A DNA stretch of 64,000 bases from assembly GCA_048938005.1 (NCBI GenBank), contig JBHLMQ010000001.1:1-64000 (forward strand), written 5' to 3'. Origin of the DNA: Promethearchaeota archaeon. Lineage in GTDB: Archaea; Asgardarchaeota; Lokiarchaeia; Sigyniarchaeales; SOKP01. The stretch's first letter is position 1; each line of letters starts with the position of its first letter. This document shows, piece after piece, positions 7,785 to 18,184 of the stretch. Position numbers and translations under genes: made by a program. Below the pieces are notes generated by a model. It saw only the letters and a program-made list of their open reading frames with translations. It was not told the origin of the DNA and made no database searches.

Positions 7785-9095
7785 TTAAATATCAAGACTT
7801 ATTTGTCCATATGTACCTCCTCCTCCAGGAGTATACTCAACCTTATCATTTCTAAGGGCTTTTATAATTAAAGCAATATTTTTATTAAAAAACTCAATTT
7901 TAGGAATAGGAGTATCAATTAGTATCTCAAATTCCTTTCCAAGTTCTTCAATTATTTTATTATAGTCATTTAGAACTGTCTTACTTGTTGTACTTTTGAT
8001 ACCTTTCACAGCTCGAATAATATCAATTAATGGTACAGCATTAATATATGGAGGTCTATGATCTGGATGTTTAGGTTCTTTGTATGTAGAAATTTTTTCA
8101 ATCCTTTCACTCACTCCCAATTTAACTTTAAAATTTTTATTTAAGTGCTCTCTACATGCCGGACAGTGTACTTTATTTTTAGAAACTTGTTCTAAATAAT
8201 CTAATCTTGAAGAAGTAGGGTCTATTGAGTAATATATAATAAAGTTATCAGTTATTGAATATTGATTAAAGATTTTACTTACTTGTTTTTTCACTTTCTT
8301 AAATAAGATCCTTCTCCTACATTTATTACAGAACATAACATAGTATTTTCCAAGTTTAGGATTTAATCCTACATTTAATATAATTTTTCGTCCATTTTTC
8401 TTTTGTATTGCTTGTAAGATCTCATTAAAAGAGGGATTATCAATATCAAATCTGTTAAATTCTCTGCCTAAGGAACGAGGATCCTGTGAGTGGGCATCAC
8501 TATTGCTTAGAAAAGTCACATCTTTCAAACACTCTAATCTATCTGCGAGATCAGTATTAGCAGAAAGTCCTAATTCAATGAAACAAATTTTCTTTGTTGC
8601 ATCAGCATAACATTCTTCAAGTGTTTTAAATTTGTTTTGTCGAAAAATTGCTTTAAAAGGTGTGAAGGCGTGAGCAGGACCAATCAAGGCACCCTCATCT
8701 GAGACAACTTCGGCCAATTCTGCTGGGGATAGATTAACCCTTGGCCGACCACCCCACTCATCCAAAATATTTTTTGAGTAAGGCTCTAATTTCATTTGAA
8801 TATTTCTTACCATATCGAAATCTTCGAAAAAGACGAGTTCATGCACACTCTCTTGATCTTCTATTTCAGTTTGAAGAATAAAATAAGTATCCTTATAACA
8901 ATAAGCGCCATCTTGATTTTTTTCTAAATTATTCTCCAAGTAATTCAGCCATGATGGTTGTAATACATCCCCCGTACCTAATATATTTAAACCTTTTTTT
9001 TTACAAGTATCGATCATCGTGTCAATATTTAGTGATTTCGACACTCCTATTGAATGTGGAGAATGTATATGTAAATCTGCGTTGTAAATATCCAT
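7785..9095 (-). CDS. PHP-domain / Zn-finger nuclease (EndoQ, TIGR00375-like)
   Basis: ADLHIHS, GPAHAFTP, SNSDAHS, LGKY..CxxC..CxxC, GVSERI and PGGGGTYG. Confidence 0.88.
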   Translation of the reverse strand: MDIYNADLHIHSPHSIGVSKSLNIDTMIDTCKKKGLNILGTGDVLQPSWLNYLENNLEKNQDGAYCYKDTYFILQTEIEDQESVHELVFFEDFDMVRNIQMKLEPYSKNILDEWGGRPRVNLSPAELAEVVSDEGALIGPAHAFTPFKAIFRQNKFKTLEECYADATKKICFIELGLSANTDLADRLECLKDVTFLSNSDAHSQDPRSLGREFNRFDIDNPSFNEILQAIQKKNGRKIILNVGLNPKLGKYYVMFCNKCRRRILFKKVKKQVSKIFNQYSITDNFIIYYSIDPTSSRLDYLEQVSKNKVHCPACREHLNKNFKVKLGVSERIEKISTYKEPKHPDHRPPYINAVPLIDIIRAVKGIKSTTSKTVLNDYNKIIEELGKEFEILIDTPIPKIEFFNKNIALIIKALRNDKVEYTPGGGGTYGQISLDI

Positions 9096-9162
9096 TTCTT
9101 TTAATAAAATTAATTCTATAAATATTTTAATTTAAAATGAAATAAGAGTCTTTTATTTAATA

Positions 9163-10209
9163 TTAAATAATGATCATTTTATCATGAATTGGATTACTTA
9201 ATAAAATCCTAAAGTATTCCTTTTCATTCTTGAAATTTACTTTTTCTAACTTTCCCTCAACGAATACAGTTTCTTTCTCTCTAGCATGTTCACAAAAACG
9301 GCCTCTGAATGAATTTATTTCATGTAATTCTTTTATATTGATAGAATTTGGAGTAATACTACTTTCGATAATTTTAAGAGGTTTTATTTTGTATGAACAA
9401 GGTGTAAAAATTGAATCTTTTGAATCAAGAATTACAGCTTTGAGTTTAATTCTCCCAATATTCTTGTATTGATAATCATAAAAATTCCCTTTCCAATCTT
9501 TTGAACTTTTAATATATCTAATAAAGAAATCATGATCCATAAATTTCCCTTGATGTTGCTTCCTTTTTTCACTTTTCATAAAGTCTTCAAATGAAATATT
9601 AGAACCACCAACTCTCCAATCATAATGAGTTCTATATTCATCCGTTGTATACTTCCTACAATCATCTGATTTTTTAAATATCTTTTTTAATATTTCTTGA
9701 AATTTTATACTTGTTTCTGTACCATATATTACTAGATCAGTATCAGAATCTTCAGTATTCAATCCGACCATAACTGATCCAGTAATTCCAATTGAATTCT
9801 CGGAAAGATGTCCTTCATTAATAAATAATTCACATAGGCTCTTAGAACGTTTTTCACTGTTGGATAAATAAGTTTTTTTTAATAAATCTTTAAAGAAGGT
9901 CCTAGGAGTATAAATTCTTTTAATTTCAGCTTTTTTAACTCCTTGAACTTCCAAATCCAGTTCTTCACAAAAGAAAAGGTGTTTAGGATATTTTTTTTTC
10001 AAAAGATCATATCGTTCGTTTAATTTGTAAATTTTTCTAAAACAAATTCCATTTTTTTTTCTTTCTCCATCTGGATGAGGAATAAATCGTAAAAAGGATA
10101 TGATATAATCATTTGGATGAAAAAGACCTTTTACATCAAAAAACAAATTATCATTTTTTGTTTCTATATAATCTCCTTCAATTGCATTTACAATCCTCAT
10201 AAATTTCAC
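9163..10209 (-). CDS. Archaeal nucleotidyltransferase-domain protein (COG1665-like)
   Basis: GITGS...DSDTDLVIYG Pol-beta NTase motif; C-terminal OB-like region. Confidence 0.8.
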   Translation of the reverse strand: MKFMRIVNAIEGDYIETKNDNLFFDVKGLFHPNDYIISFLRFIPHPDGERKKNGICFRKIYKLNERYDLLKKKYPKHLFFCEELDLEVQGVKKAEIKRIYTPRTFFKDLLKKTYLSNSEKRSKSLCELFINEGHLSENSIGITGSVMVGLNTEDSDTDLVIYGTETSIKFQEILKKIFKKSDDCRKYTTDEYRTHYDWRVGGSNISFEDFMKSEKRKQHQGKFMDHDFFIRYIKSSKDWKGNFYDYQYKNIGRIKLKAVILDSKDSIFTPCSYKIKPLKIIESSITPNSINIKELHEINSFRGRFCEHAREKETVFVEGKLEKVNFKNEKEYFRILLSNPIHDKMIII

Positions 10210-10220
10210 AAAATTTGTAA

Positions 10221-11378
10221 TTAATATTTTGAGGGCGTTTTTGATTTAATATGCGAAGGAGTTTTTGTTTTAATTGAGGGGGTTTTAGATTTAATTTTCC
10301 TTAGTTCTCTTTCAAATTCTCTTTTTTCATTTAAAAATCTTTGTCGATCCTTCTCTAGTTTTTCTCTTTCACGTTTAATAAGATTTTTTTCCCTTTCTAA
10401 ATTTGATTTTACTTTTTCTAATTGTCTATTTTCATCATTCAATTTTCTAAACCTTTCCTCTAAATTCGGAATCTTGCGATTTAAAGAGTAGAATTTATTC
10501 TCTGCTGCTGGAATTTTTCTTTCTAATTCTTTTAATCTTGCTTCTTGTTGATGCCTTTTTTTTTCCAAATTATTTACATCTCTTTCTGATTTATCTCTAT
10601 ATTTTTTCAAATCTAATCTTTTTTTATCAATTTCCCGAGTTTTAAGGTCTAAATCTTGTTTTTTATATCTGGTTTTTTCTCTTTCTTCCTTGAGTTTTTT
10701 CTTTTCATCAGATATTCGGTTTTTTTCATCAGTAATCTCCCTTCTCAAATTATTAACTTCTCTATTTAAGTTATCCCTTTCTCTAGTTAAATTTTTGATT
10801 TCATTTCTTAAATCCATTAATTTATTTTCTAAATCATTGGTTGTTCTCTCTAAAGCTTTTTCTCTCCTCTCCATCCCTGGAATTTTTGTTTTGATTTCTT
10901 TTATGCGCTTTTCTGTTCTTTCTTTTTCCCATTCTAAATTTTTCTTCTGATTTCGAATATCATCTCTCAATTCATCTAATTTATTTTGATATCTTTCTAA
11001 TTCAGCATTTTTTTGATCTAATTCTTCATTCTTACTTCTGATTTTTTCTCGAAATTGTCTGTTTTTAGTAGCTAAATCATTTTTTTGTTGTTCTATTTGG
11101 TTTTTCGTCGTTTCTAACTCATTCCGCAAGTTATTTCGTTGTTCAATAAGATTTTTAATTTTAAGTTCCTTTTCTTTTCTTTTTCTTTCTAAATCTTCTA
11201 TATTTTCTTCGTAATTTTCTATTTGATTAAGAACTTTTTCCCATTCGCTCTTTTCTTTATCCAGTTTAATTCTTTCTTTTTTTAATTTTTTAAGCAATTT
11301 TTTATCCGAAACTTGATCTAATTCTTCATCTGGCGTTTTTTCTCGAATTTGATATTTAGGAATAGGTTCGTCATTCAT
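10221..11378 (-). CDS. Long charged coiled-coil protein with C-terminal KTPS repeats
   Basis: About 340 aa of K/E/R/L heptads; tail IKSKTPS-IKTKTPS-HIKSKTPS-KY. Confidence 0.85.
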   Translation of the reverse strand: MNDEPIPKYQIREKTPDEELDQVSDKKLLKKLKKERIKLDKEKSEWEKVLNQIENYEENIEDLERKRKEKELKIKNLIEQRNNLRNELETTKNQIEQQKNDLATKNRQFREKIRSKNEELDQKNAELERYQNKLDELRDDIRNQKKNLEWEKERTEKRIKEIKTKIPGMERREKALERTTNDLENKLMDLRNEIKNLTRERDNLNREVNNLRREITDEKNRISDEKKKLKEEREKTRYKKQDLDLKTREIDKKRLDLKKYRDKSERDVNNLEKKRHQQEARLKELERKIPAAENKFYSLNRKIPNLEERFRKLNDENRQLEKVKSNLEREKNLIKREREKLEKDRQRFLNEKREFERELRKIKSKTPSIKTKTPSHIKSKTPSKY

Positions 11379-11587
11379 AATGTTTCAATTATTTATTATA
11401 TCTATTAATAAATTCATATTAATATTGACTCTAAAGTGTTTGCAAATCAAAACTCCAAATATTAAATTTTTGTATTTGTTGAATCTATTTATATAGCTTA
11501 GTTTCTATTATTTTCATATAATCTTAGCAAAAAAAAGATCAGAATTATATTTAAGATAAAAAGATATATTAGATTAGGTTTAATCTT

Positions 11588-12037
11588 ATGGGCTTTGATG
11601 ATGAATTTGATGAGGAATTTGATGAGGAATTTGATGAAGAATTTGATGAACAAGAATTTGATGAAGATTTAGAGGATTTAGAAGAAGAATTTGAGGAAGA
11701 AATAGAAGAACACGTCGAAGAACCTTTTGTAGAAATTGCTAAAGAGGAAGTTGATTCCAAAACACCTTCTACTAAGACTATTCAAAGAGGGAAAAAGATA
11801 TCAGTATATTTTATGTCTACTATCGGTCCAGGTGAGAAAAAGCAAAAATTAACTGTTAATGATGGAAACAGCGTTGGTGACATTAAAGAAACTGTAGCAA
11901 ATTTATTTGGTTTAGATCCTGCTGACTTTTACTTATCATGTGGTGGCGTAACAATGGATGAAACTAACTCTTTAAGCTTTTATAATGTTTCTGACGGAGA
12001 TGACATACTTTTAATTCCAGCTAGTATTGCTGGTTAA
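11588..12037 (+). CDS. Ubiquitin-like protein 1 (acidic N-terminal tail, C-terminus -SIAG)
   Basis: Beta-grasp pattern ISVYFMST...VGDIKETVANLFGL...GGVTMDETNSLSFYNVSDGDDILLIP; terminal Gly; lies next to E1/E2/JAMM. Confidence 0.88.
   Translation: MGFDDEFDEEFDEEFDEEFDEQEFDEDLEDLEEEFEEEIEEHVEEPFVEIAKEEVDSKTPSTKTIQRGKKISVYFMSTIGPGEKKQKLTVNDGNSVGDIKETVANLFGLDPADFYLSCGGVTMDETNSLSFYNVSDGDDILLIPASIAG
11594..11665 (+). repeat. Coding 12-bp tandem repeat (TTTGATGARGAA, FDEE)
   Basis: About six consecutive FDDE/FDEE-type units at the start of Ubl1. Confidence 0.85.
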
Positions 12038-12056: not shown

Positions 12057-12845
12057 TTAATTTCTTTCTTTTCTTGAAGGGATTAGAGCAATTTCATCGT
12101 CATCATCAATATCATAATCTTTTATTATTGAGTTCTCTTGTAGTAATATCCCTCCGCTAGATAAGAGAAAATCTTCTAATTCATAATCAAATAATATTGC
12201 AATTTTTTCCTTAATTATTCTAATTACTTCAGTAGTATCAACAATTATTATTTTCGTTTTCTCGCCAGGTTCAACTAATGATCTTATATAAACTCGAATC
12301 TGACCTTCCATTTCGATTTGTCTTTTAGGTGGGGTATAAATTATAGCTCCATCAGTTTTATCCTTGGTGTTCAATATATTTTCGATTAAATCATTTCTCT
12401 CATTTGGATCGTAATATAGCATTTCTCTAATAAATAATATCTTATCCATTTTTGATAATCCTAGAAGGTTTATGTTATCTAATTCTTCCTTTCTAAAGAT
12501 TGAAAAAATAAATTTATCAACTATTGGCATATCCTTATAAGTCTCATCCGATTCAATATATTCTTCTATAGAAGGCATGACATCAATATAATCTTCAATA
12601 ATATCGCTAGTATCCTTTTGAATTAATTTTGGTTTTGTAAAGTATTTTTTTTCTTTTAATCTAATATCTTGACTACTTTTAGACTGTATAACGGTGTAAA
12701 TAGTACTTGTAGATAAAACTGCGACACTACTAATAGTTAGGACAAGAAATAAAGGAATATTTTCTACCTGAAATAGGAAAAAAAAGACATAGAATAGAAT
12801 ACAAAAAACGTAAATAACACTTAAAATTCTATAATTTTTTCTCAT
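12057..12845 (-). CDS. Membrane-anchored ubiquitin-like domain protein (2 TM + C-terminal Ubl, no terminal Gly)
   Basis: Two N-terminal hydrophobic helices; the C-terminal domain aligns with Ubl1/2 (PGEK, FLLSSGG, DYDIDDDDEIALIP) but ends SRKERN. Confidence 0.85.
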   Translation of the reverse strand: MRKNYRILSVIYVFCILFYVFFFLFQVENIPLFLVLTISSVAVLSTSTIYTVIQSKSSQDIRLKEKKYFTKPKLIQKDTSDIIEDYIDVMPSIEEYIESDETYKDMPIVDKFIFSIFRKEELDNINLLGLSKMDKILFIREMLYYDPNERNDLIENILNTKDKTDGAIIYTPPKRQIEMEGQIRVYIRSLVEPGEKTKIIIVDTTEVIRIIKEKIAILFDYELEDFLLSSGGILLQENSIIKDYDIDDDDEIALIPSRKERN

Positions 12846-13880: not shown

Positions 13881-14216
13881 ATGGGTTTTGATAATGAATT
13901 TGATGAAGATTTAGGTGGAGAAGAACCGTTAAAATCTAAAACTCCTGCAACTAAAACTCCTTCAGCAGGAAAGAAATTAACTTTATATTTTATGTCAACA
14001 ATTGGTCCTGGTGAAAAGAAGGAAAAATTAACTGTGAATGACAGTAATCGCGTAAGAGATATTAAACAAACATTAGGAAATTTATATGGCCTTGATCCTA
14101 ATGACTTTCACTTATCTTCTGGCGGAGTTACAATGGATGAAGATAGTGCATTAAGAGACTATGATGTAAACGATGGTGACGATATTCTATTAATCCCTGC
14201 TAGTACAGCTGGGTAG
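13881..14216 (+). CDS. Ubiquitin-like protein 2 (C-terminus -STAG)
   Basis: Close paralog of Ubl1 (YFMSTIGPGEKK, GGVTMDE, DGDDILLIPAS.AG); immediately upstream of E1. Confidence 0.9.
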   Translation: MGFDNEFDEDLGGEEPLKSKTPATKTPSAGKKLTLYFMSTIGPGEKKEKLTVNDSNRVRDIKQTLGNLYGLDPNDFHLSSGGVTMDEDSALRDYDVNDGDDILLIPASTAG

Positions 14217-14308: not shown

Positions 14309-15556
14309 TTGAATAAGGATTCAGATTTTTTTGCTAAAGAATTATCAGCGGATGAGAGAGACCTGTATGACCGTCAATTTCGTCTAGAAGGTTGGTCTCA
14401 GAAATTAGTAAAGAACTCAAGAGTGCTGATAGTCGGTGTTGGAGGCTTGGGTTGTGAAATTGCTAAAAATCTAGCCATGCTTGGTGTGGGTCATTTAGAT
14501 CTTATTGATTTAGATATCATTGAACATTCTAATTTGAACCGTCAAGTTCTATTTGCAGGAGCAAAGATAGGAGAGTCAAAAGCAGTTGTTGCTGCTAGAA
14601 AATTAAAAGAAATTAATCCTAATGTTATTGTTAAGGGATACCACACCTCCTTAGAACGTTTAAATCCGGCACTATATCAAGCTGCTGATGTTGTAATTGG
14701 AGGACTTGATTCGATGAATGCACGTCTAAATTTAAATGCACAATGTATAAGATTTAAAAAGCCACTAGTAGATGGAGGAGTATCTGGTTATTATGGTCAT
14801 GTATACACAATATTTCCTTACAAAAATGCTTGTTATGAATGTAATCCATTACCGGTAGGAGAGAGTGATGAGATGGCTGCTTGTACTGTTGTTGGAGTCC
14901 CCCGAAAAAGGATTCACTGCGTTTTTAAAGGAGATATGGCATTCAGAGAAAAATTTGATAGAGATCCGAATCCAAAAGACGTAAATGATATTAAATTCAT
15001 TCAAAAGACTGCAAATGAATTAGTAAATAAACACAATTTCTTACCTGAATATACGGAGGATGATATTGTGAAAATCATTGATAGGCACGATCCTGGTATA
15101 ATAACTATAAATGCCGTCATTTCTGCCCTACAATCACATGAAACAACCAAAATCCTTCATTGGAAAAAAAGTCATAAAGGATTAGGTGAACCTATTAGAA
15201 GTTATGTGATCTTTAATGCAATTACAATGAAATTTTATCATATTGAAAAACAGAGAAACCCAGAATGTTCTCAATGTGGTAAAAAAGTACGACGAGTATC
15301 CATAAAATTGAAAGCTCAATCACCTTGTATAAATATAATTAAAATATTAAAGAAGAATGGATTTAAATTAGATCCAAATTCCGAGCCAATTCTAACTTTA
15401 CTGGATTTTAATGATATTATGATTGTTGATTTAGAGAAGAATCCAATTGAAAATGGGTTAAGAAATTACGAGCTTATGACAGCTGCTGGGTTTAAAGGTG
15501 GAGAAATTTTTGTAACCTTAAAAATAAAACAAGATTTAAATCAAAAAAGTTTTTAA
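14309..15556 (+). CDS. E1 ubiquitin-like activating enzyme (ThiF/UBA family with catalytic Cys domain)
   Basis: YDRQ, GVGGLGCE, SNLNRQ; Zn pairs CYEC and CSQC; UBA3-like AACTVVGVPRKRIHC segment. Confidence 0.93.
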   Translation: MNKDSDFFAKELSADERDLYDRQFRLEGWSQKLVKNSRVLIVGVGGLGCEIAKNLAMLGVGHLDLIDLDIIEHSNLNRQVLFAGAKIGESKAVVAARKLKEINPNVIVKGYHTSLERLNPALYQAADVVIGGLDSMNARLNLNAQCIRFKKPLVDGGVSGYYGHVYTIFPYKNACYECNPLPVGESDEMAACTVVGVPRKRIHCVFKGDMAFREKFDRDPNPKDVNDIKFIQKTANELVNKHNFLPEYTEDDIVKIIDRHDPGIITINAVISALQSHETTKILHWKKSHKGLGEPIRSYVIFNAITMKFYHIEKQRNPECSQCGKKVRRVSIKLKAQSPCINIIKILKKNGFKLDPNSEPILTLLDFNDIMIVDLEKNPIENGLRNYELMTAAGFKGGEIFVTLKIKQDLNQKSF

Positions 15557-15637
15557 ATTAAAAGTTTAAGGAAAAAAACAATTATTTAAAGAAAGATTTT
15601 TACTATAAAATTAAGGATAATAAAAAGGGTTGAGAGT

Positions 15638-16165
15638 ATGAGTATAAGAAGTGGTCGAGTATCCCGAGATTTTGCGGGATTAAAAAAAATGCTTAAAGAA
15701 GGTAGTATCATTCAATTAAAACCATTTAGTCCGAAAAGGAAGAGTATTGATCACTTAGCAATCTTATTTAAAGGACCTAAAGGTACCGCTTATGCAGGTG
15801 GTCTTTTTAGATTAGAAATGAGATTTCCTGCTCAATATCCTAAACAACCTCCTTTTGTAAGAATGCATACTCCAATTTGGCATCCAAATTTTTGGCCAAA
15901 ACCCTCTGAATATAAAGGACAAAGAAATATTTGTCTAGCATTAGTAGATCCCTCATTAATAGGTAAAAAAGGTGGATGGAGTCCTTCAAAAACTGCTGTT
16001 ACAGTAGTTCAAGCGATAATTGCTATGTTAAACACGCGTGGTAAATATGTAAATCCTACAGATGTATTTAATAAAAAAGCAGCAATAGAAATGATAAAGA
16101 ATCAAAAGTTTTTTGAGAAAAAAGTAAAAAATCTTGTTAAGAAGTATGCAAATAAAAAATGGTGA
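15638..16165 (+). CDS. E2 ubiquitin-conjugating enzyme
   Basis: GPKGTAYAGGLF, FPAQYPKQPP, WHPN, catalytic NICL and WSPS. Confidence 0.95.
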   Translation: MSIRSGRVSRDFAGLKKMLKEGSIIQLKPFSPKRKSIDHLAILFKGPKGTAYAGGLFRLEMRFPAQYPKQPPFVRMHTPIWHPNFWPKPSEYKGQRNICLALVDPSLIGKKGGWSPSKTAVTVVQAIIAMLNTRGKYVNPTDVFNKKAAIEMIKNQKFFEKKVKNLVKKYANKKW

Positions 16166-16986
16166 TTTTTTTAATGGATAATGATGACCTGGCCAATAAC
16201 TCGATAAAAGATGTAATTAAGAGGAAGATAAAGGAAAAAATAAAACAAGAACTATTAGATGAAATCTGTGAAGAACTTAAATTAGAAGAAGATGAATTAA
16301 CTGAAGAAATTTCTTCAATGCTTACAAGAAAACCATCTGAAAAACCAATTATAAAACTTACTAAGATTCCTACAGCTAGAATTGTAGAAAATAAAAAAGT
16401 TGAAACTGAAAAAGAAGAGGAAATCCAAAAAGAGATTTATATTTCAGTAAAAGCTATACTTAAAATAGCGACTCATGCGCTTAAATACGCGAATTCTAAG
16501 ATTCCTAAAGAAAAATGGGTGGAAGTGATAGGGCTTCTAGCAGGAAAGATAGATAATAATCATGTAATCCATATAGAAGATTCTTATCCAATGGGACATG
16601 GTACAGCAGTTTATGCAGAAATTAAAGATTATAAAAATTACGTTAGAGCTTTTAAAGATATTAAAAGGCAGAAGTATTTTATATGTGGATGGTATCATTC
16701 ACATCCATCTTATGGATGTTTCATGTCGAATGAAGACATGGGGACTCAAGCGAGATACCAAAAATTATGGGATAAAGCTGTTGCTCTTGTCATCGATCCC
16801 TATCAAATTAATGGTAAATCTGCGGGATTTGAAATATATAAAGCTGATATTAAATCTAACACATGGTATCCCCTTATATATGGAATTAAAGGATCATTAG
16901 ATGTAAAAATGTTACCAGAAGTATTAAAATTTATAAATCCCATAACTGAGGGAAAAGCAGTATATCTCGAATATGACGAGGATTAA
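16159..16986 (+). CDS. JAB1/MPN (JAMM) metalloisopeptidase, Rpn11/CSN5-like (true start may be the ATG at 16174)
   Basis: EVIGLL...GWYHSHPSYGCFMSNEDMGTQARYQ...ALVIDP; charged N-terminal extension. Confidence 0.93.
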   Translation: MVIFLMDNDDLANNSIKDVIKRKIKEKIKQELLDEICEELKLEEDELTEEISSMLTRKPSEKPIIKLTKIPTARIVENKKVETEKEEEIQKEIYISVKAILKIATHALKYANSKIPKEKWVEVIGLLAGKIDNNHVIHIEDSYPMGHGTAVYAEIKDYKNYVRAFKDIKRQKYFICGWYHSHPSYGCFMSNEDMGTQARYQKLWDKAVALVIDPYQINGKSAGFEIYKADIKSNTWYPLIYGIKGSLDVKMLPEVLKFINPITEGKAVYLEYDED

Positions 16987-17011
16987 AAGAGAGTGTGGTG
17001 ATTAATAGACT

Positions 17012-18184
17012 GTGACCAAATATAAATCTATTGTAATTGTATTAGCGATATTTTCGCTTATAGGAATAGTGCACGGTGCGATCTTAATCTCTTTTAATAT
17101 ATTTGTGAGTTGGTTATTGATTGGAATTTGGTTAATATTTTCGTTTAAAGTATTAAAAAATATTAAGCAACATCGAGAATATCGAAGTCCTCACAATACT
17201 GCATTCTTTACTATTGGCCCCGTCTTTATTGGAATATTTTATTCAATTTGGGGAAATTTTACAGCCTTATTAGGAGAAAATCTTATTGTAGATTCAAATT
17301 TATATTTAAGTCTATGGAGTATTCTATTTGGATTACCTTATGTAATTTACGGCTCATTTTCCTTATATCGATGTTTTAAGAAATATAATGTAATTTATTT
17401 TGGTACAAAATCAGTAAATGCACGTAAATTTGCCTATTTCTTAGGTTTTTCAATTCTATTTTTTATAATTTTCTATTGGATAAGTTTTTATTCATTTGCA
17501 GAATTTTATGGATTTCTGCTAATAATTGATCTTAATCTTTTGATATTACTTATTGGAACTATTATAATATTGATTATTCCAGGATTATTAGGATCTCGTT
17601 CGCAATTACCGCAATTGACTAGAGATTATATAGCAAGACGTACAAGTAGATTAAACAGTTTAGTTTCACCAAACACCCATAGAGAAAGCATTCATACTAC
17701 AGCAAGATCATCTCCAACACCTTCTACAAGATTTGTTACTCATACTTCGAGATCTGTTTCCCATTCTTCAAGATCAACGCCGACAGGACATATACAATCT
17801 AGAACTTCTAGAGTTAAAACCACTACTCGTTCTAGAAGCACAAGTAAAAAAGGAAAGCCAATAAGAAGAAGTAATACTACTGTAAAACATGCGAATTACA
17901 AACATTATAGACCAAAAGCCGCAAACTTGTCAATAGAAGATTTTAAATGTATTTTTTGTTTTAAATTACCAGAATTTCCTAAAGATAATGGTAGAGGAAT
18001 AATTTTATGTCCAAATTGTAGGTACCCTGCTCATGCTGATGAATTTAAAGATTGGCTTAGAACTTCTGGTCTTTGTTCTAGATGTAATGCCCCTATTCCG
18101 TTAAGTTATAGGAGAAATCCTAAAATCATTAGTGTAAAAAGCTATTCAATAATTTATAAAGATTTTCTAAGGAAAAAACAGTAG
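17012..18184 (+). CDS. Multi-pass membrane protein with C-terminal RING-like zinc finger (putative E3 ligase)
   Basis: About six hydrophobic helices, an S/T/R-rich linker, then CIFC...CPNCRYPAHADE..W....CSRC; last gene of the E1-E2-JAMM run. Confidence 0.8.
   Translation: MTKYKSIVIVLAIFSLIGIVHGAILISFNIFVSWLLIGIWLIFSFKVLKNIKQHREYRSPHNTAFFTIGPVFIGIFYSIWGNFTALLGENLIVDSNLYLSLWSILFGLPYVIYGSFSLYRCFKKYNVIYFGTKSVNARKFAYFLGFSILFFIIFYWISFYSFAEFYGFLLIIDLNLLILLIGTIIILIIPGLLGSRSQLPQLTRDYIARRTSRLNSLVSPNTHRESIHTTARSSPTPSTRFVTHTSRSVSHSSRSTPTGHIQSRTSRVKTTTRSRSTSKKGKPIRRSNTTVKHANYKHYRPKAANLSIEDFKCIFCFKLPEFPKDNGRGIILCPNCRYPAHADEFKDWLRTSGLCSRCNAPIPLSYRRNPKIISVKSYSIIYKDFLRKKQ

Follow-up and report, generated by a model that had tools for sequence, protein, structure and literature searches.

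The window analysed here is a 64,000-nucleotide stretch of DNA from a Promethearchaeota archaeon (contig JBHLMQ010000001.1, positions 1 to 64,000; G+C ~30%), and it carries a cluster of genes for a ubiquitin-like tagging system. One gene of this cluster, called TM-Ubl here, encodes a protein which begins with a transmembrane (TM) hairpin and continues through a disordered acidic linker and a three-helix tail module to a ubiquitin-like (Ubl) domain and a basic tail. Directly upstream on the same minus strand, 85 bp away, lies a gene for a winged helix-turn-helix (wHTH) protein, as an initial annotation of this DNA had stated. Beyond it, a divergent operon encodes a free Ubl, an E1, an E2, a JAMM protein and a multi-pass membrane protein (17012-18184). 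That last protein has a Cys/His-rich C-terminus and no Pfam match; the initial annotation had called it a TM-RING protein, and the name is kept below. The positions of all features are collected in Table 1.

Table 1. TM-Ubl, its parts and promoter elements, and the surrounding cluster, with positions in the window
Feature	Position	Strand	Description
TM-Ubl gene	12057..12845	-	262 amino acids (aa), ATG start
Two hydrophobic helices, residues ~6-26 and ~31-53	12687..12830	-	Hydropathy and AlphaFold2
Tail module, residues ~106-165	12351..12530	-	Strand-like 109-117 plus three helices; shared with surface-protein tails; predicted wHTH-binding surface
Ubl (beta-grasp) domain, residues ~181-257	12075..12305	-	Alignments, Pfam, AlphaFold2, Foldseek, tree
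Basic tail RKERN in place of the xS[T/I/V]AG end	12060..12074	-	Tail comparison
20-bp element AAACTCCATTTTTATTCCAA	12905..12924	-	79 bp upstream of the TM-Ubl ATG, then a TATA-like A/T box
Second copy of the element, AAACTTCAAAATCATTCCAA	13768..13787	+	113 bp upstream of the Ubl ATG (13881-14216)
wHTH gene, 223 aa	12931..13602	-	ArsR/SdpR/Sso10a-type winged-helix matches below family cut-offs; predicted partner of the tail module
Free Ubl, 111 aa, STAG end	13881..14216	+	First gene of the Ubl-E1-E2-JAMM-TM-RING operon
E1 (ThiF, 202 bits), E2 (UQ_con, 86 bits), JAMM (JAB, 65 bits), multi-pass membrane protein	14309..18184	+	
Second conjugatable Ubl, acidic N-terminal extension, SIAG end	11588..12037	+	Convergent with TM-Ubl
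Coiled-coil protein	10221..11378	-	Flanks the cluster throughout the order

The membrane anchor and the distribution of TM-Ubl

The two TM helices proposed in the initial annotation are seen by hydropathy and by modelling alike. The 19-residue Kyte-Doolittle maxima are 2.81 at residues 7-25 and 1.82 at residues 31-49, and AlphaFold2 modelled the hydrophobic segments as helices 2-24 and 30-46. Because basic residues flank the hairpin on each outer side (MRKNYR before the first helix and KSSQDIRLKEKK after the second), the N- and C-terminal sides of the hairpin are probably both cytoplasmic. Alternatively, the first helix could be an uncleaved or cleaved signal-anchor, and the remainder of the protein would be cytoplasmic either way. 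The second helix (SVAVLSTSTIYT, 12687-12755 on the minus strand) is rich in Ser and Thr and invariant across 20 same-genus orthologues. This is more conservation than a plain anchor requires, which suggests a specific intramembrane contact, whether self-association or contact with a partner.

The structure of the whole protein was predicted with AlphaFold2 from an alignment of 20 orthologues. Overall confidence was low, with a mean predicted local distance difference test (pLDDT) score of 58, and residues 47-105 appeared disordered (pLDDT <50). The “helical spacer” previously described between membrane and Ubl therefore stands in part: residues ~118-160 do form a compact three-helix module, but residues 47-105 are disordered, and the module is a domain rather than a spacer.

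The TM-Ubl reading frame is open and full-length in all 24 same-genus genomes (57-89% identity), so it is not a chance open reading frame (ORF). Databases annotate the orthologues as “ubiquitin-like protein” or “hypothetical protein”, and list their hosts as Promethearchaeota or Lokiarchaeota-type Asgard archaea. A survey with residues 1-175 as the query covered 121 genomes of one Lokiarchaeial family, in which g1 denotes the host's genus. TM-Ubl was found in 37 of the 40 g1 genomes (the three without a match are 76-84% complete), in 35 of 41 from g14, and, as ORFs of 246-292 aa, in 4/10 from g16 and 3/6 from g17. Genus g12 gave module-only matches on large ORFs and no TM-Ubl, and in g13, g15, g18 and g20-24 the query had no match. 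Outside the family, matches to the protein were limited to its Ubl domain. TM-Ubl is conserved in four genera of one Lokiarchaeial family.

Its surroundings are conserved as well. The same gene order is found across 20 g1 loci, and a full wHTH gene lies directly upstream of TM-Ubl in 18 of them; of the two exceptions, one locus starts at a contig end and the other, beside masked stretches, retains the last 77 wHTH codons. All five g14 loci keep the order from the PHP-like gene to the GTP cyclohydrolase gene, each with the wHTH gene upstream, and wHTH followed by TM-Ubl is present in three of three g16/g17 loci (two from g17, one from g16). TM-Ubl thus sits in the cluster at every related locus examined (20 + 5 + 3), which bears out the linkage to the tagging cascade that had been supposed. 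In three loci without TM-Ubl, the coiled-coil gene stands directly beside Ubl-E1-E2-JAMM-TM-RING, and there is neither a wHTH gene nor a second Ubl; loci of other families also have the enzyme operon without TM-Ubl. Since the operon is intact in such loci, the second Ubl, TM-Ubl and the wHTH gene form an inserted block, and the operon is independent of them.

Some features of the flanking genes were recorded along the way. PHP-like and nucleotidyltransferase-like genes (window 7785-10209, minus strand) adjoin the coiled-coil gene in 5/5 g14 loci, and a g17 locus (L063) keeps the nucleotidyltransferase-like gene and ends before the PHP-like position. In one genome (G062, L060:4740-5296, minus strand) the E2 reads as two ORFs of 85 and 94 aa, which may be a frameshift or an assembly error.

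The ubiquitin-like domain and its tail

The C-terminal domain of TM-Ubl resembles both free Ubls of the cluster, which are 70% identical to one another. Over the last ~87 residues, a gapless alignment to the Ubl at 13881-14216 has 31/87 identical residues (36%, E 4e-20), and one to the Ubl at 11588-12037 has 32/88 (36%, E 9e-18). The motifs on which the initial annotation had based this alignment (PGEK, IKE, FLLSSGG and DYD..DD.I.LIP), together with the SRKERN end, are all in the translation. Pfam's “ubiquitin” family (PF00240) matched residues 192-254 at 26.0 bits against a cut-off of 25.4, and at 28.2 bits in the genome scan.

In the AlphaFold2 model, residues 182-256 have a pLDDT of 72-86 and follow the strand-strand-helix-strand-strand order of a beta-grasp, with strands at 182-189, 197-203, 226-230 and 250-256 and a helix at 208-219. 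A phmmer search of the isolated domain against PDB sequences gave no match at E ≤0.01, and the evidence for the fold therefore rests on Foldseek. The top Foldseek match in the PDB was Caldiarchaeum ubiquitin, 6fno_D (TM-score 0.79 on the target, root-mean-square deviation 1.7 A, 79 columns), followed by ubiquitin, ISG15, SUMO, Hub1 and the Dsk2 UBL, with TM-scores on the target of 0.84-0.90 for ubiquitin, ISG15 and SUMO. A beta-grasp fold, whose absence would have spoken against the initial annotation, is what these matches to archaeal and eukaryotic ubiquitins indicate.

The domain differs from the free Ubls at its end. Tails were compared for every Ubl-domain ORF of 28 related loci, plus one paralogue elsewhere in the genome. 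The motif xS[T/I/V]AG is present in 48 of the 48 other Ubl-domain ORFs and in none of the 25 TM-Ubl tails. After the LIP strand, the latter read S/L/I-R/K-K-like (SRKERN, SRKEKN, SKKK, SRIPQK, IRK); the orthologue L020 does have a terminal Gly, but out of register. The 48 motif-bearing ORFs are 23 short Ubls, 22 Ubls with longer N-terminal extensions, one 274-aa zinc-ribbon form and two vWA fusions. They have 0-14 extra residues after the motif, and Ala-Gly is therefore the mature end. Judged by its tail, the TM-Ubl domain cannot be conjugated.

In a tree of the 78-column domain with tails removed, the TM-Ubl domains form one clade (100/100), with a long stem of 1.96 changes per column and tight branching thereafter; the columns are too few to resolve the deeper order. 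Over 83 compared columns, 20 conserved positions are identical in TM-Ubl and the conjugatable Ubls, and 25 are conserved within each group but differ between them. Tails and tree together uphold the earlier description of a non-conjugatable paralogue of the same Ubl, and by these sequence comparisons the domain has diverged under a constraint of its own and is not decaying. The lost conjugation end and the long stem would also fit a Ubl duplicate which fused by chance to a membrane ORF and is decaying without function, but the frame is open in 24/24 same-genus genomes and across four genera, invariant columns occur in all domains, and the clade is tight after its stem. This idea is barely credible, because the conservation already contradicts it.

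The conjugatable Ubls of the cluster and its relatives have features of their own. Free Ubls of relatives (L036, L037 and L038 of g14, and L031-L033) often have 1-14 residues past the Ala-Gly (TFK, KLI, YF, CYIERI, GISIAS), precursor tails which would need cleavage; both free Ubls in the window end exactly at Ala-Gly. A third conjugatable paralogue lies outside the window (G000:C60:46849-47673, minus strand): it is 274 aa long, with an N-terminal zinc-ribbon-like CPKC motif, a coiled region and an SSTAG end, and 255-297-aa forms resembling it stand after the TM-RING gene in locus L059. Elsewhere in the order, one family has ORFs of 583-585 aa (L031:9691-11448, minus strand; L032:2213-3964, plus strand) that look vWA-like by eye in their N-terminal part and end in a conjugatable-type Ubl (STAG plus a tail). 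They lie between the coiled-coil and TM-RING genes, the position held here by the TM-Ubl block.

An [S/K]KTP motif, often doubled, is found just before the beta-grasp of every conjugatable Ubl (including 11588-12037, 13881-14216, G000:C60:46849-47673 and those of L031-L033). It also occurs at both ends of the coiled-coil protein (start ...EKTPDEE, end ...KSKTPSIKTKTPSHIKSKTPSKY) and is degenerate in TM-Ubl (Y-T/S-P-P). These proteins could have in it a common site for docking or phosphorylation.

The tail module and its predicted winged-helix partner

In relatives, ORFs of 600-970 aa end in a region that TM-Ubl residues 30-165 match significantly. Modelled from 25 aligned rows, the module forms a three-helix unit, and 42/75 residues have pLDDT >90. 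A profile built from it found the module in 42/61 genomes of the order, and 313 clusters matched at E ≤0.001 when 1.84 billion representatives were searched. Among the best 150 of these 313 cluster representatives, the module lies at most 20 residues from the C-terminus in 141, a predicted TM helix is upstream in 107, the module is in tandem in 12, and 32 proteins are no longer than 130 aa. The proteins that carry it have an N-terminal hydrophobic segment and one TM helix 60-90 residues ahead of the module, and their ectodomains include right-handed beta-helix/NosD, beta-propeller, Ig-like, lectin-like and GH9 + fn3 types. No Cys-rich region was found before or after the module in 26 tails examined. 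On its domain order, TM-Ubl is the membrane-plus-tail part of a surface receptor, with the ectodomain absent and a Ubl added after the module.

A possible resemblance of the module to UBA/CUE-like ubiquitin-binding domains drew no support from sequence or fold searches, and these assign the module to no family. Pfam gave no consistent family among 25 members, and a PDB profile search gave as its best match a designed protein at E 0.046, with FF-domain chains at E 0.1-0.16. Foldseek found nothing at E ≤0.001 (best E 2.6, generic three-helix bundles), and the best match in a wide VIA-align search had Z 4.6.

A Ubl placed in line after a receptor tail might imitate a tagged membrane protein and compete for the receptors or the JAMM protease to which tagged surface proteins are substrates or ligands, while being neither removable nor transferable. 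Such a product mimic or decoy would agree with the finding that Ubl is the only thing seen after the module (five of the nine proteins among the 150 with a non-C-terminal module are of the TM-Ubl type), with a tail that lacks the Ala-Gly after which the precursor tails of free Ubls begin, and with the retention of the core Ubl signature in the 20 shared positions. There would, however, be few tagged tails to imitate, since module proteins are few per genome: most g1 and g14 genomes have a single module match, and in the host genome TM-Ubl is the sole carrier at E <0.001, with two weak matches at E 0.02 and 0.07. TM-Ubl is also missing from g12, which has more module proteins than any other genus (6-14 matches), and the 25 group-specific fixed differences suggest an altered surface. 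We consider the decoy quite unlikely.

What does accompany the module is a wHTH gene. A wHTH profile (26 rows) found an adjacent same-strand paralogue at 15 of 22 module loci, several of the remaining seven being narrow or ended by the contig. In five whole genomes, a same-strand wHTH gene lies within 1 kb of 25/41 module ORFs (23/33 of those of at least 200 aa), and conversely 25 of the 32 strongest wHTH matches adjoin a module ORF; many unpaired module ORFs start at about coordinate 0 of their contig. Module plus wHTH is a gene-pair rule, of which wHTH/TM-Ubl is one instance. These pairs of receptor-tail module and wHTH protein are an undescribed class, defined by this analysis, and in TM-Ubl the module precedes the Ubl instead of ending the protein.

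Two pairs outside the window (G000:C8:15118-17603 and G000:C34:8211-10314, both minus strand) each join a multi-pass membrane protein to a distant paralogue of the wHTH protein, which matches the wHTH profile at E 4e-14 and 5e-16 respectively. In its C-terminal region the C8 membrane protein weakly resembles the module (E 0.67), and both pairs may be remote members of the family.

The wHTH protein was then co-folded with TM-Ubl residues 96-262 from custom alignments, in three runs and alongside three controls. The predicted complex has an interface score (ipSAE) of 0.68 (runs 0.71, 0.68 and 0.68), against 0.00, 0.00 and 0.16 for the controls. The ipSAE mark used was reached by 116/157 solved complexes and 2/215 mismatched pairs, a calibration which is only rough here because of the custom alignments. 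The runs agree in at least 91% of contacts, and partner pLDDT is at least 78. The predicted interface joins wHTH residues 15-129 to TM-Ubl residues 96-183. On the TM-Ubl side it takes in the strand-like segment 109-117, the helices of the module and the linker that leads to the first Ubl strand; F114, F138 and Y144 of TM-Ubl and W109 and K116 of the wHTH protein are among the predicted contact residues. No residue of the Ubl core (184-262) takes part, and the third winged-helix domain is also free.

Conservation was compared with this interface. Across 26 orthologues, 21/45 wHTH residues at the interface are invariant, versus 27/178 elsewhere (odds ratio 4.9, a descriptive figure since the sequences are kin). 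Within TM-Ubl residues 96-165, seven of the ten invariant positions are at the predicted interface. The prediction supports a complex in which the module and linker, rather than the Ubl core, would bind the first two winged-helix domains.

TM-Ubl and the Ubl operon have an element in common in their promoter regions. The 85-bp spacer between wHTH and TM-Ubl is conserved over 26 aligned loci from four genera, with the 80% consensus AAAACT.CA..TTTATTCCAAT...ATTTA.ATTTTAAAT, and in the divergent region between wHTH and Ubl the element before a TATA-like box is conserved in 23 loci. The pattern AAACTYCANNNTYATTCCAA has two sites in the 64-kb window versus 0.00 expected, and a scan of the 3.72-Mb assembly, anchored on the pattern's second half, gave no further site at ≤1 mismatch. 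We infer that TM-Ubl has its own promoter and is co-regulated with the enzyme operon, the element being a candidate wHTH site.

A 19-bp exact block upstream of Ubl had also been tried as a regulon marker; it gave 117 scattered genome matches at ≤4 mismatches and was too loose, so the degenerate two-half pattern was adopted. At ≤3 mismatches the exact block is absent from the three wHTH-less loci. The region upstream of the acidic Ubl (11379-11587) has only the first half of the element and was not counted.

A proposed tethered regulator and its known counterparts

Altogether this suggests, with a probability of about one half, that TM-Ubl is a membrane tether or co-regulator of the cluster's wHTH regulator, with its non-conjugatable Ubl as the coupling domain. 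TM-Ubl would hold the regulator at the membrane or otherwise modulate it, by analogy with SdpI and SdpR (see below). In the receptor paralogues the ectodomain would supply the input, and in TM-Ubl the cytoplasmic Ubl would take that place. The domain would be read, not consumed, by Ubl-binding parts such as E1, E2, RING, JAMM or downstream receptors, and the tagging system could in this way exert feedback on how both its own operon and TM-Ubl are transcribed.

A more specific version can be put forward tentatively. TM-Ubl may belong, in “headless” form, to a family of transmembrane signalling proteins that is undescribed in Asgard archaea and consists of a surface receptor with a C-terminal tail module and its cognate multi-winged-helix partner. 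Its sensory ectodomain would have been replaced by a cytoplasmic non-conjugatable Ubl that the cluster's E1, E2, RING or JAMM read but do not consume. By way of the tethered wHTH protein, the Ubl system would sense its own state and adjust transcription of its operon.

Several points weigh against a tethered regulator. Invariant TM-Ubl residues are not enriched at the interface overall (7/45 vs 17/122), because the Ubl core is equally conserved, and the complex score is the model's own confidence and says nothing of affinity or of the cell. The 20-bp pattern was derived from the same sequences it was scored on, the link between element and wHTH gene is a correlation over only three wHTH-less loci, and a promoter element in common with the enzyme operon is as compatible with a structural pathway component as with a regulator. 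The family matches of the wHTH protein are below curated cut-offs (ArsR/SmtB 39 vs 55 bits; SdpR 36.7 vs 100). Finally, the predicted interface covers the conserved helix 104-118 of the second winged-helix domain. In ArsR-type proteins the corresponding helix would read DNA, and so the wHTH protein may not bind DNA through this helix, or may not be a transcription factor.

The last two points could also be taken to mean that the wHTH protein is a protein-binding winged-helix adaptor, and that it and TM-Ubl form a scaffold at the membrane that nucleates a Ubl-marked assembly, in loose resemblance to ESCRT-II with its tandem winged-helix subunits. The interface would then use the conserved helix for protein contact, every DNA-binding family match being below cut-off anyway, and links between ubiquitin and ESCRT are described in Asgard archaea (PMC9192718). 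We think this very unlikely. The best wHTH matches are to DNA binders of the ArsR/SmtB, SdpR, Sso10a and Lrs14 types and none is to an ESCRT-II family; the third winged-helix domain (148-210), the source of the Sso10a, SdpR and TrmB-type matches, is outside the interface and free for DNA; the element is found at both promoters only where the wHTH gene is present; and the window contains no ESCRT gene.

Another possibility, put forward in the initial annotation and given a low but appreciable probability by us, is that TM-Ubl is an adaptor of the ligase or pathway. The anchored Ubl would recruit an E2, a RING-like protein, JAMM, the proteasome or Cdc48 to the membrane, and the wHTH protein would be secondary. 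The Ubl core is free in the predicted complex and yet strongly conserved (14 invariant columns in 184-262), the cluster includes a multi-pass membrane protein with a Cys/His-rich C-terminus, TM-Ubl has a promoter element in common with the enzyme operon, and its invariant, polar second helix would suit an intramembrane partner. Precedents exist in the membrane anchoring of UBL3 (PMC9001657) and the scaffolding of Hrd1 by Usa1 (PMC13328587). Against this, other genera and families have a complete Ubl-E1-E2-JAMM-TM-RING operon but no TM-Ubl, which the ligase therefore does not require, and TM-Ubl always arrives with the wHTH gene and not with any enzyme. The tether of a regulator is better supported than the adaptor because the module travels with the wHTH gene, because binding to the wHTH protein is predicted and because the TM-RING operon exists without TM-Ubl.

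Cell biologists build by hand fusions of a membrane tail to a ubiquitin that lacks its reactive end, and TM-Ubl is a naturally occurring protein of this kind. Integral, non-conjugated UBL domains with docking or regulatory roles are regarded as a eukaryotic elaboration; TM-Ubl sits in the closest archaeal relatives of eukaryotes, membrane-anchored, within a tagging cluster and paired with what is probably that cluster's regulator. Should the predicted contact prove true, TM-Ubl would offer a directly testable example of a ubiquitin-like system in archaea that is linked to its own transcription, and would reveal a new signalling pair of receptor tail and winged-helix protein on many Lokiarchaeial surface proteins. 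If the headless-receptor version is true, TM-Ubl would be a prokaryotic counterpart of ubiquitin-controlled, membrane-tethered transcription factors.

Among eukaryotic systems, prenylated UBL3/MUB proteins recruit for MARCH-type ligases and E2s. UBL3 is described as supporting the ubiquitination carried out by a transmembrane RING ligase only when it is anchored to the membrane (PMC9001657). TM-Ubl is likewise a non-conjugated ubiquitin fold, predicted on the cytoplasmic membrane face alongside a transmembrane RING-type ligase system. Unlike MUB/UBL3, its anchor is an N-terminal hairpin and not a C-terminal lipid, the SRKERN-like tails having no Cys and no CAAX, and it has an extra tail module and a wHTH partner.

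HERP (HERPUD1), TMUB1 and Dsc3 are integral UBL-domain membrane proteins of ligase complexes of the endoplasmic-reticulum-associated degradation type, and HERP and Usa1 recruit Ubl-binding partners for Hrd1. Like them, TM-Ubl combines a UBL and a hairpin-like anchor in one integral (type II) protein near a multi-pass RING-type protein. Unlike HERP/Usa1, it has the reverse domain order, with the anchor at the start and the UBL at the end; apart from the beta-grasp, no homology was detected. Its ligase operon occurs without it, and its best-supported partner, by the predicted complex, is a wHTH protein. Usa1 is described as scaffolding Hrd1 (PMC13328587).

The cluster itself can be compared with the ubiquitin operons of Caldiarchaeum subterraneum and of Asgard archaea (PMC5654768, PMC6043591, PMC9192718). 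These too cluster a ubiquitin-like protein, E1, E2, JAMM/Rpn11 and a RING-type protein, and the closest solved fold to TM-Ubl's domain is Caldiarchaeum ubiquitin. The parts of those accounts covered here mention no membrane-anchored non-conjugatable Ubl and no wHTH partner. Nor was a membrane-anchored Ubl in Asgard archaea described in the main texts covered (PMC9192718, 10.1101/2023.07.25.550441 and PMC12962969 among them).

In membrane anti-sigma/ECF sigma pairs, a membrane protein holds a regulator encoded beside it, and TM-Ubl would likewise hold its neighbouring regulator; the folds are unrelated, however, and proteolytic release is not indicated. The other such system is that of Bacillus subtilis, where SdpI is a membrane protein that sequesters SdpR, an ArsR-type autorepressor encoded in the same operon (PMC2910880). 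Unlike SdpI, TM-Ubl has no SdpI Pfam match at E ≤1 and its partner reaches 36.7 bits against the SdpR cut-off of 100; its anchor is a two-helix hairpin, its input would be a cytoplasmic Ubl and not an extracellular toxin, and its host is archaeal. As with SdpI/SdpR, the gene for a membrane protein adjoins that for a winged-helix regulator, the regulator coming first (wHTH upstream in 18/20, 5/5 and 3/3 loci), and a common element lies at the promoters of the pair's membrane gene and the adjacent divergent operon. Binding of TM-Ubl to the wHTH protein is a prediction from modelling (ipSAE 0.68 vs 0.16 for the best control).

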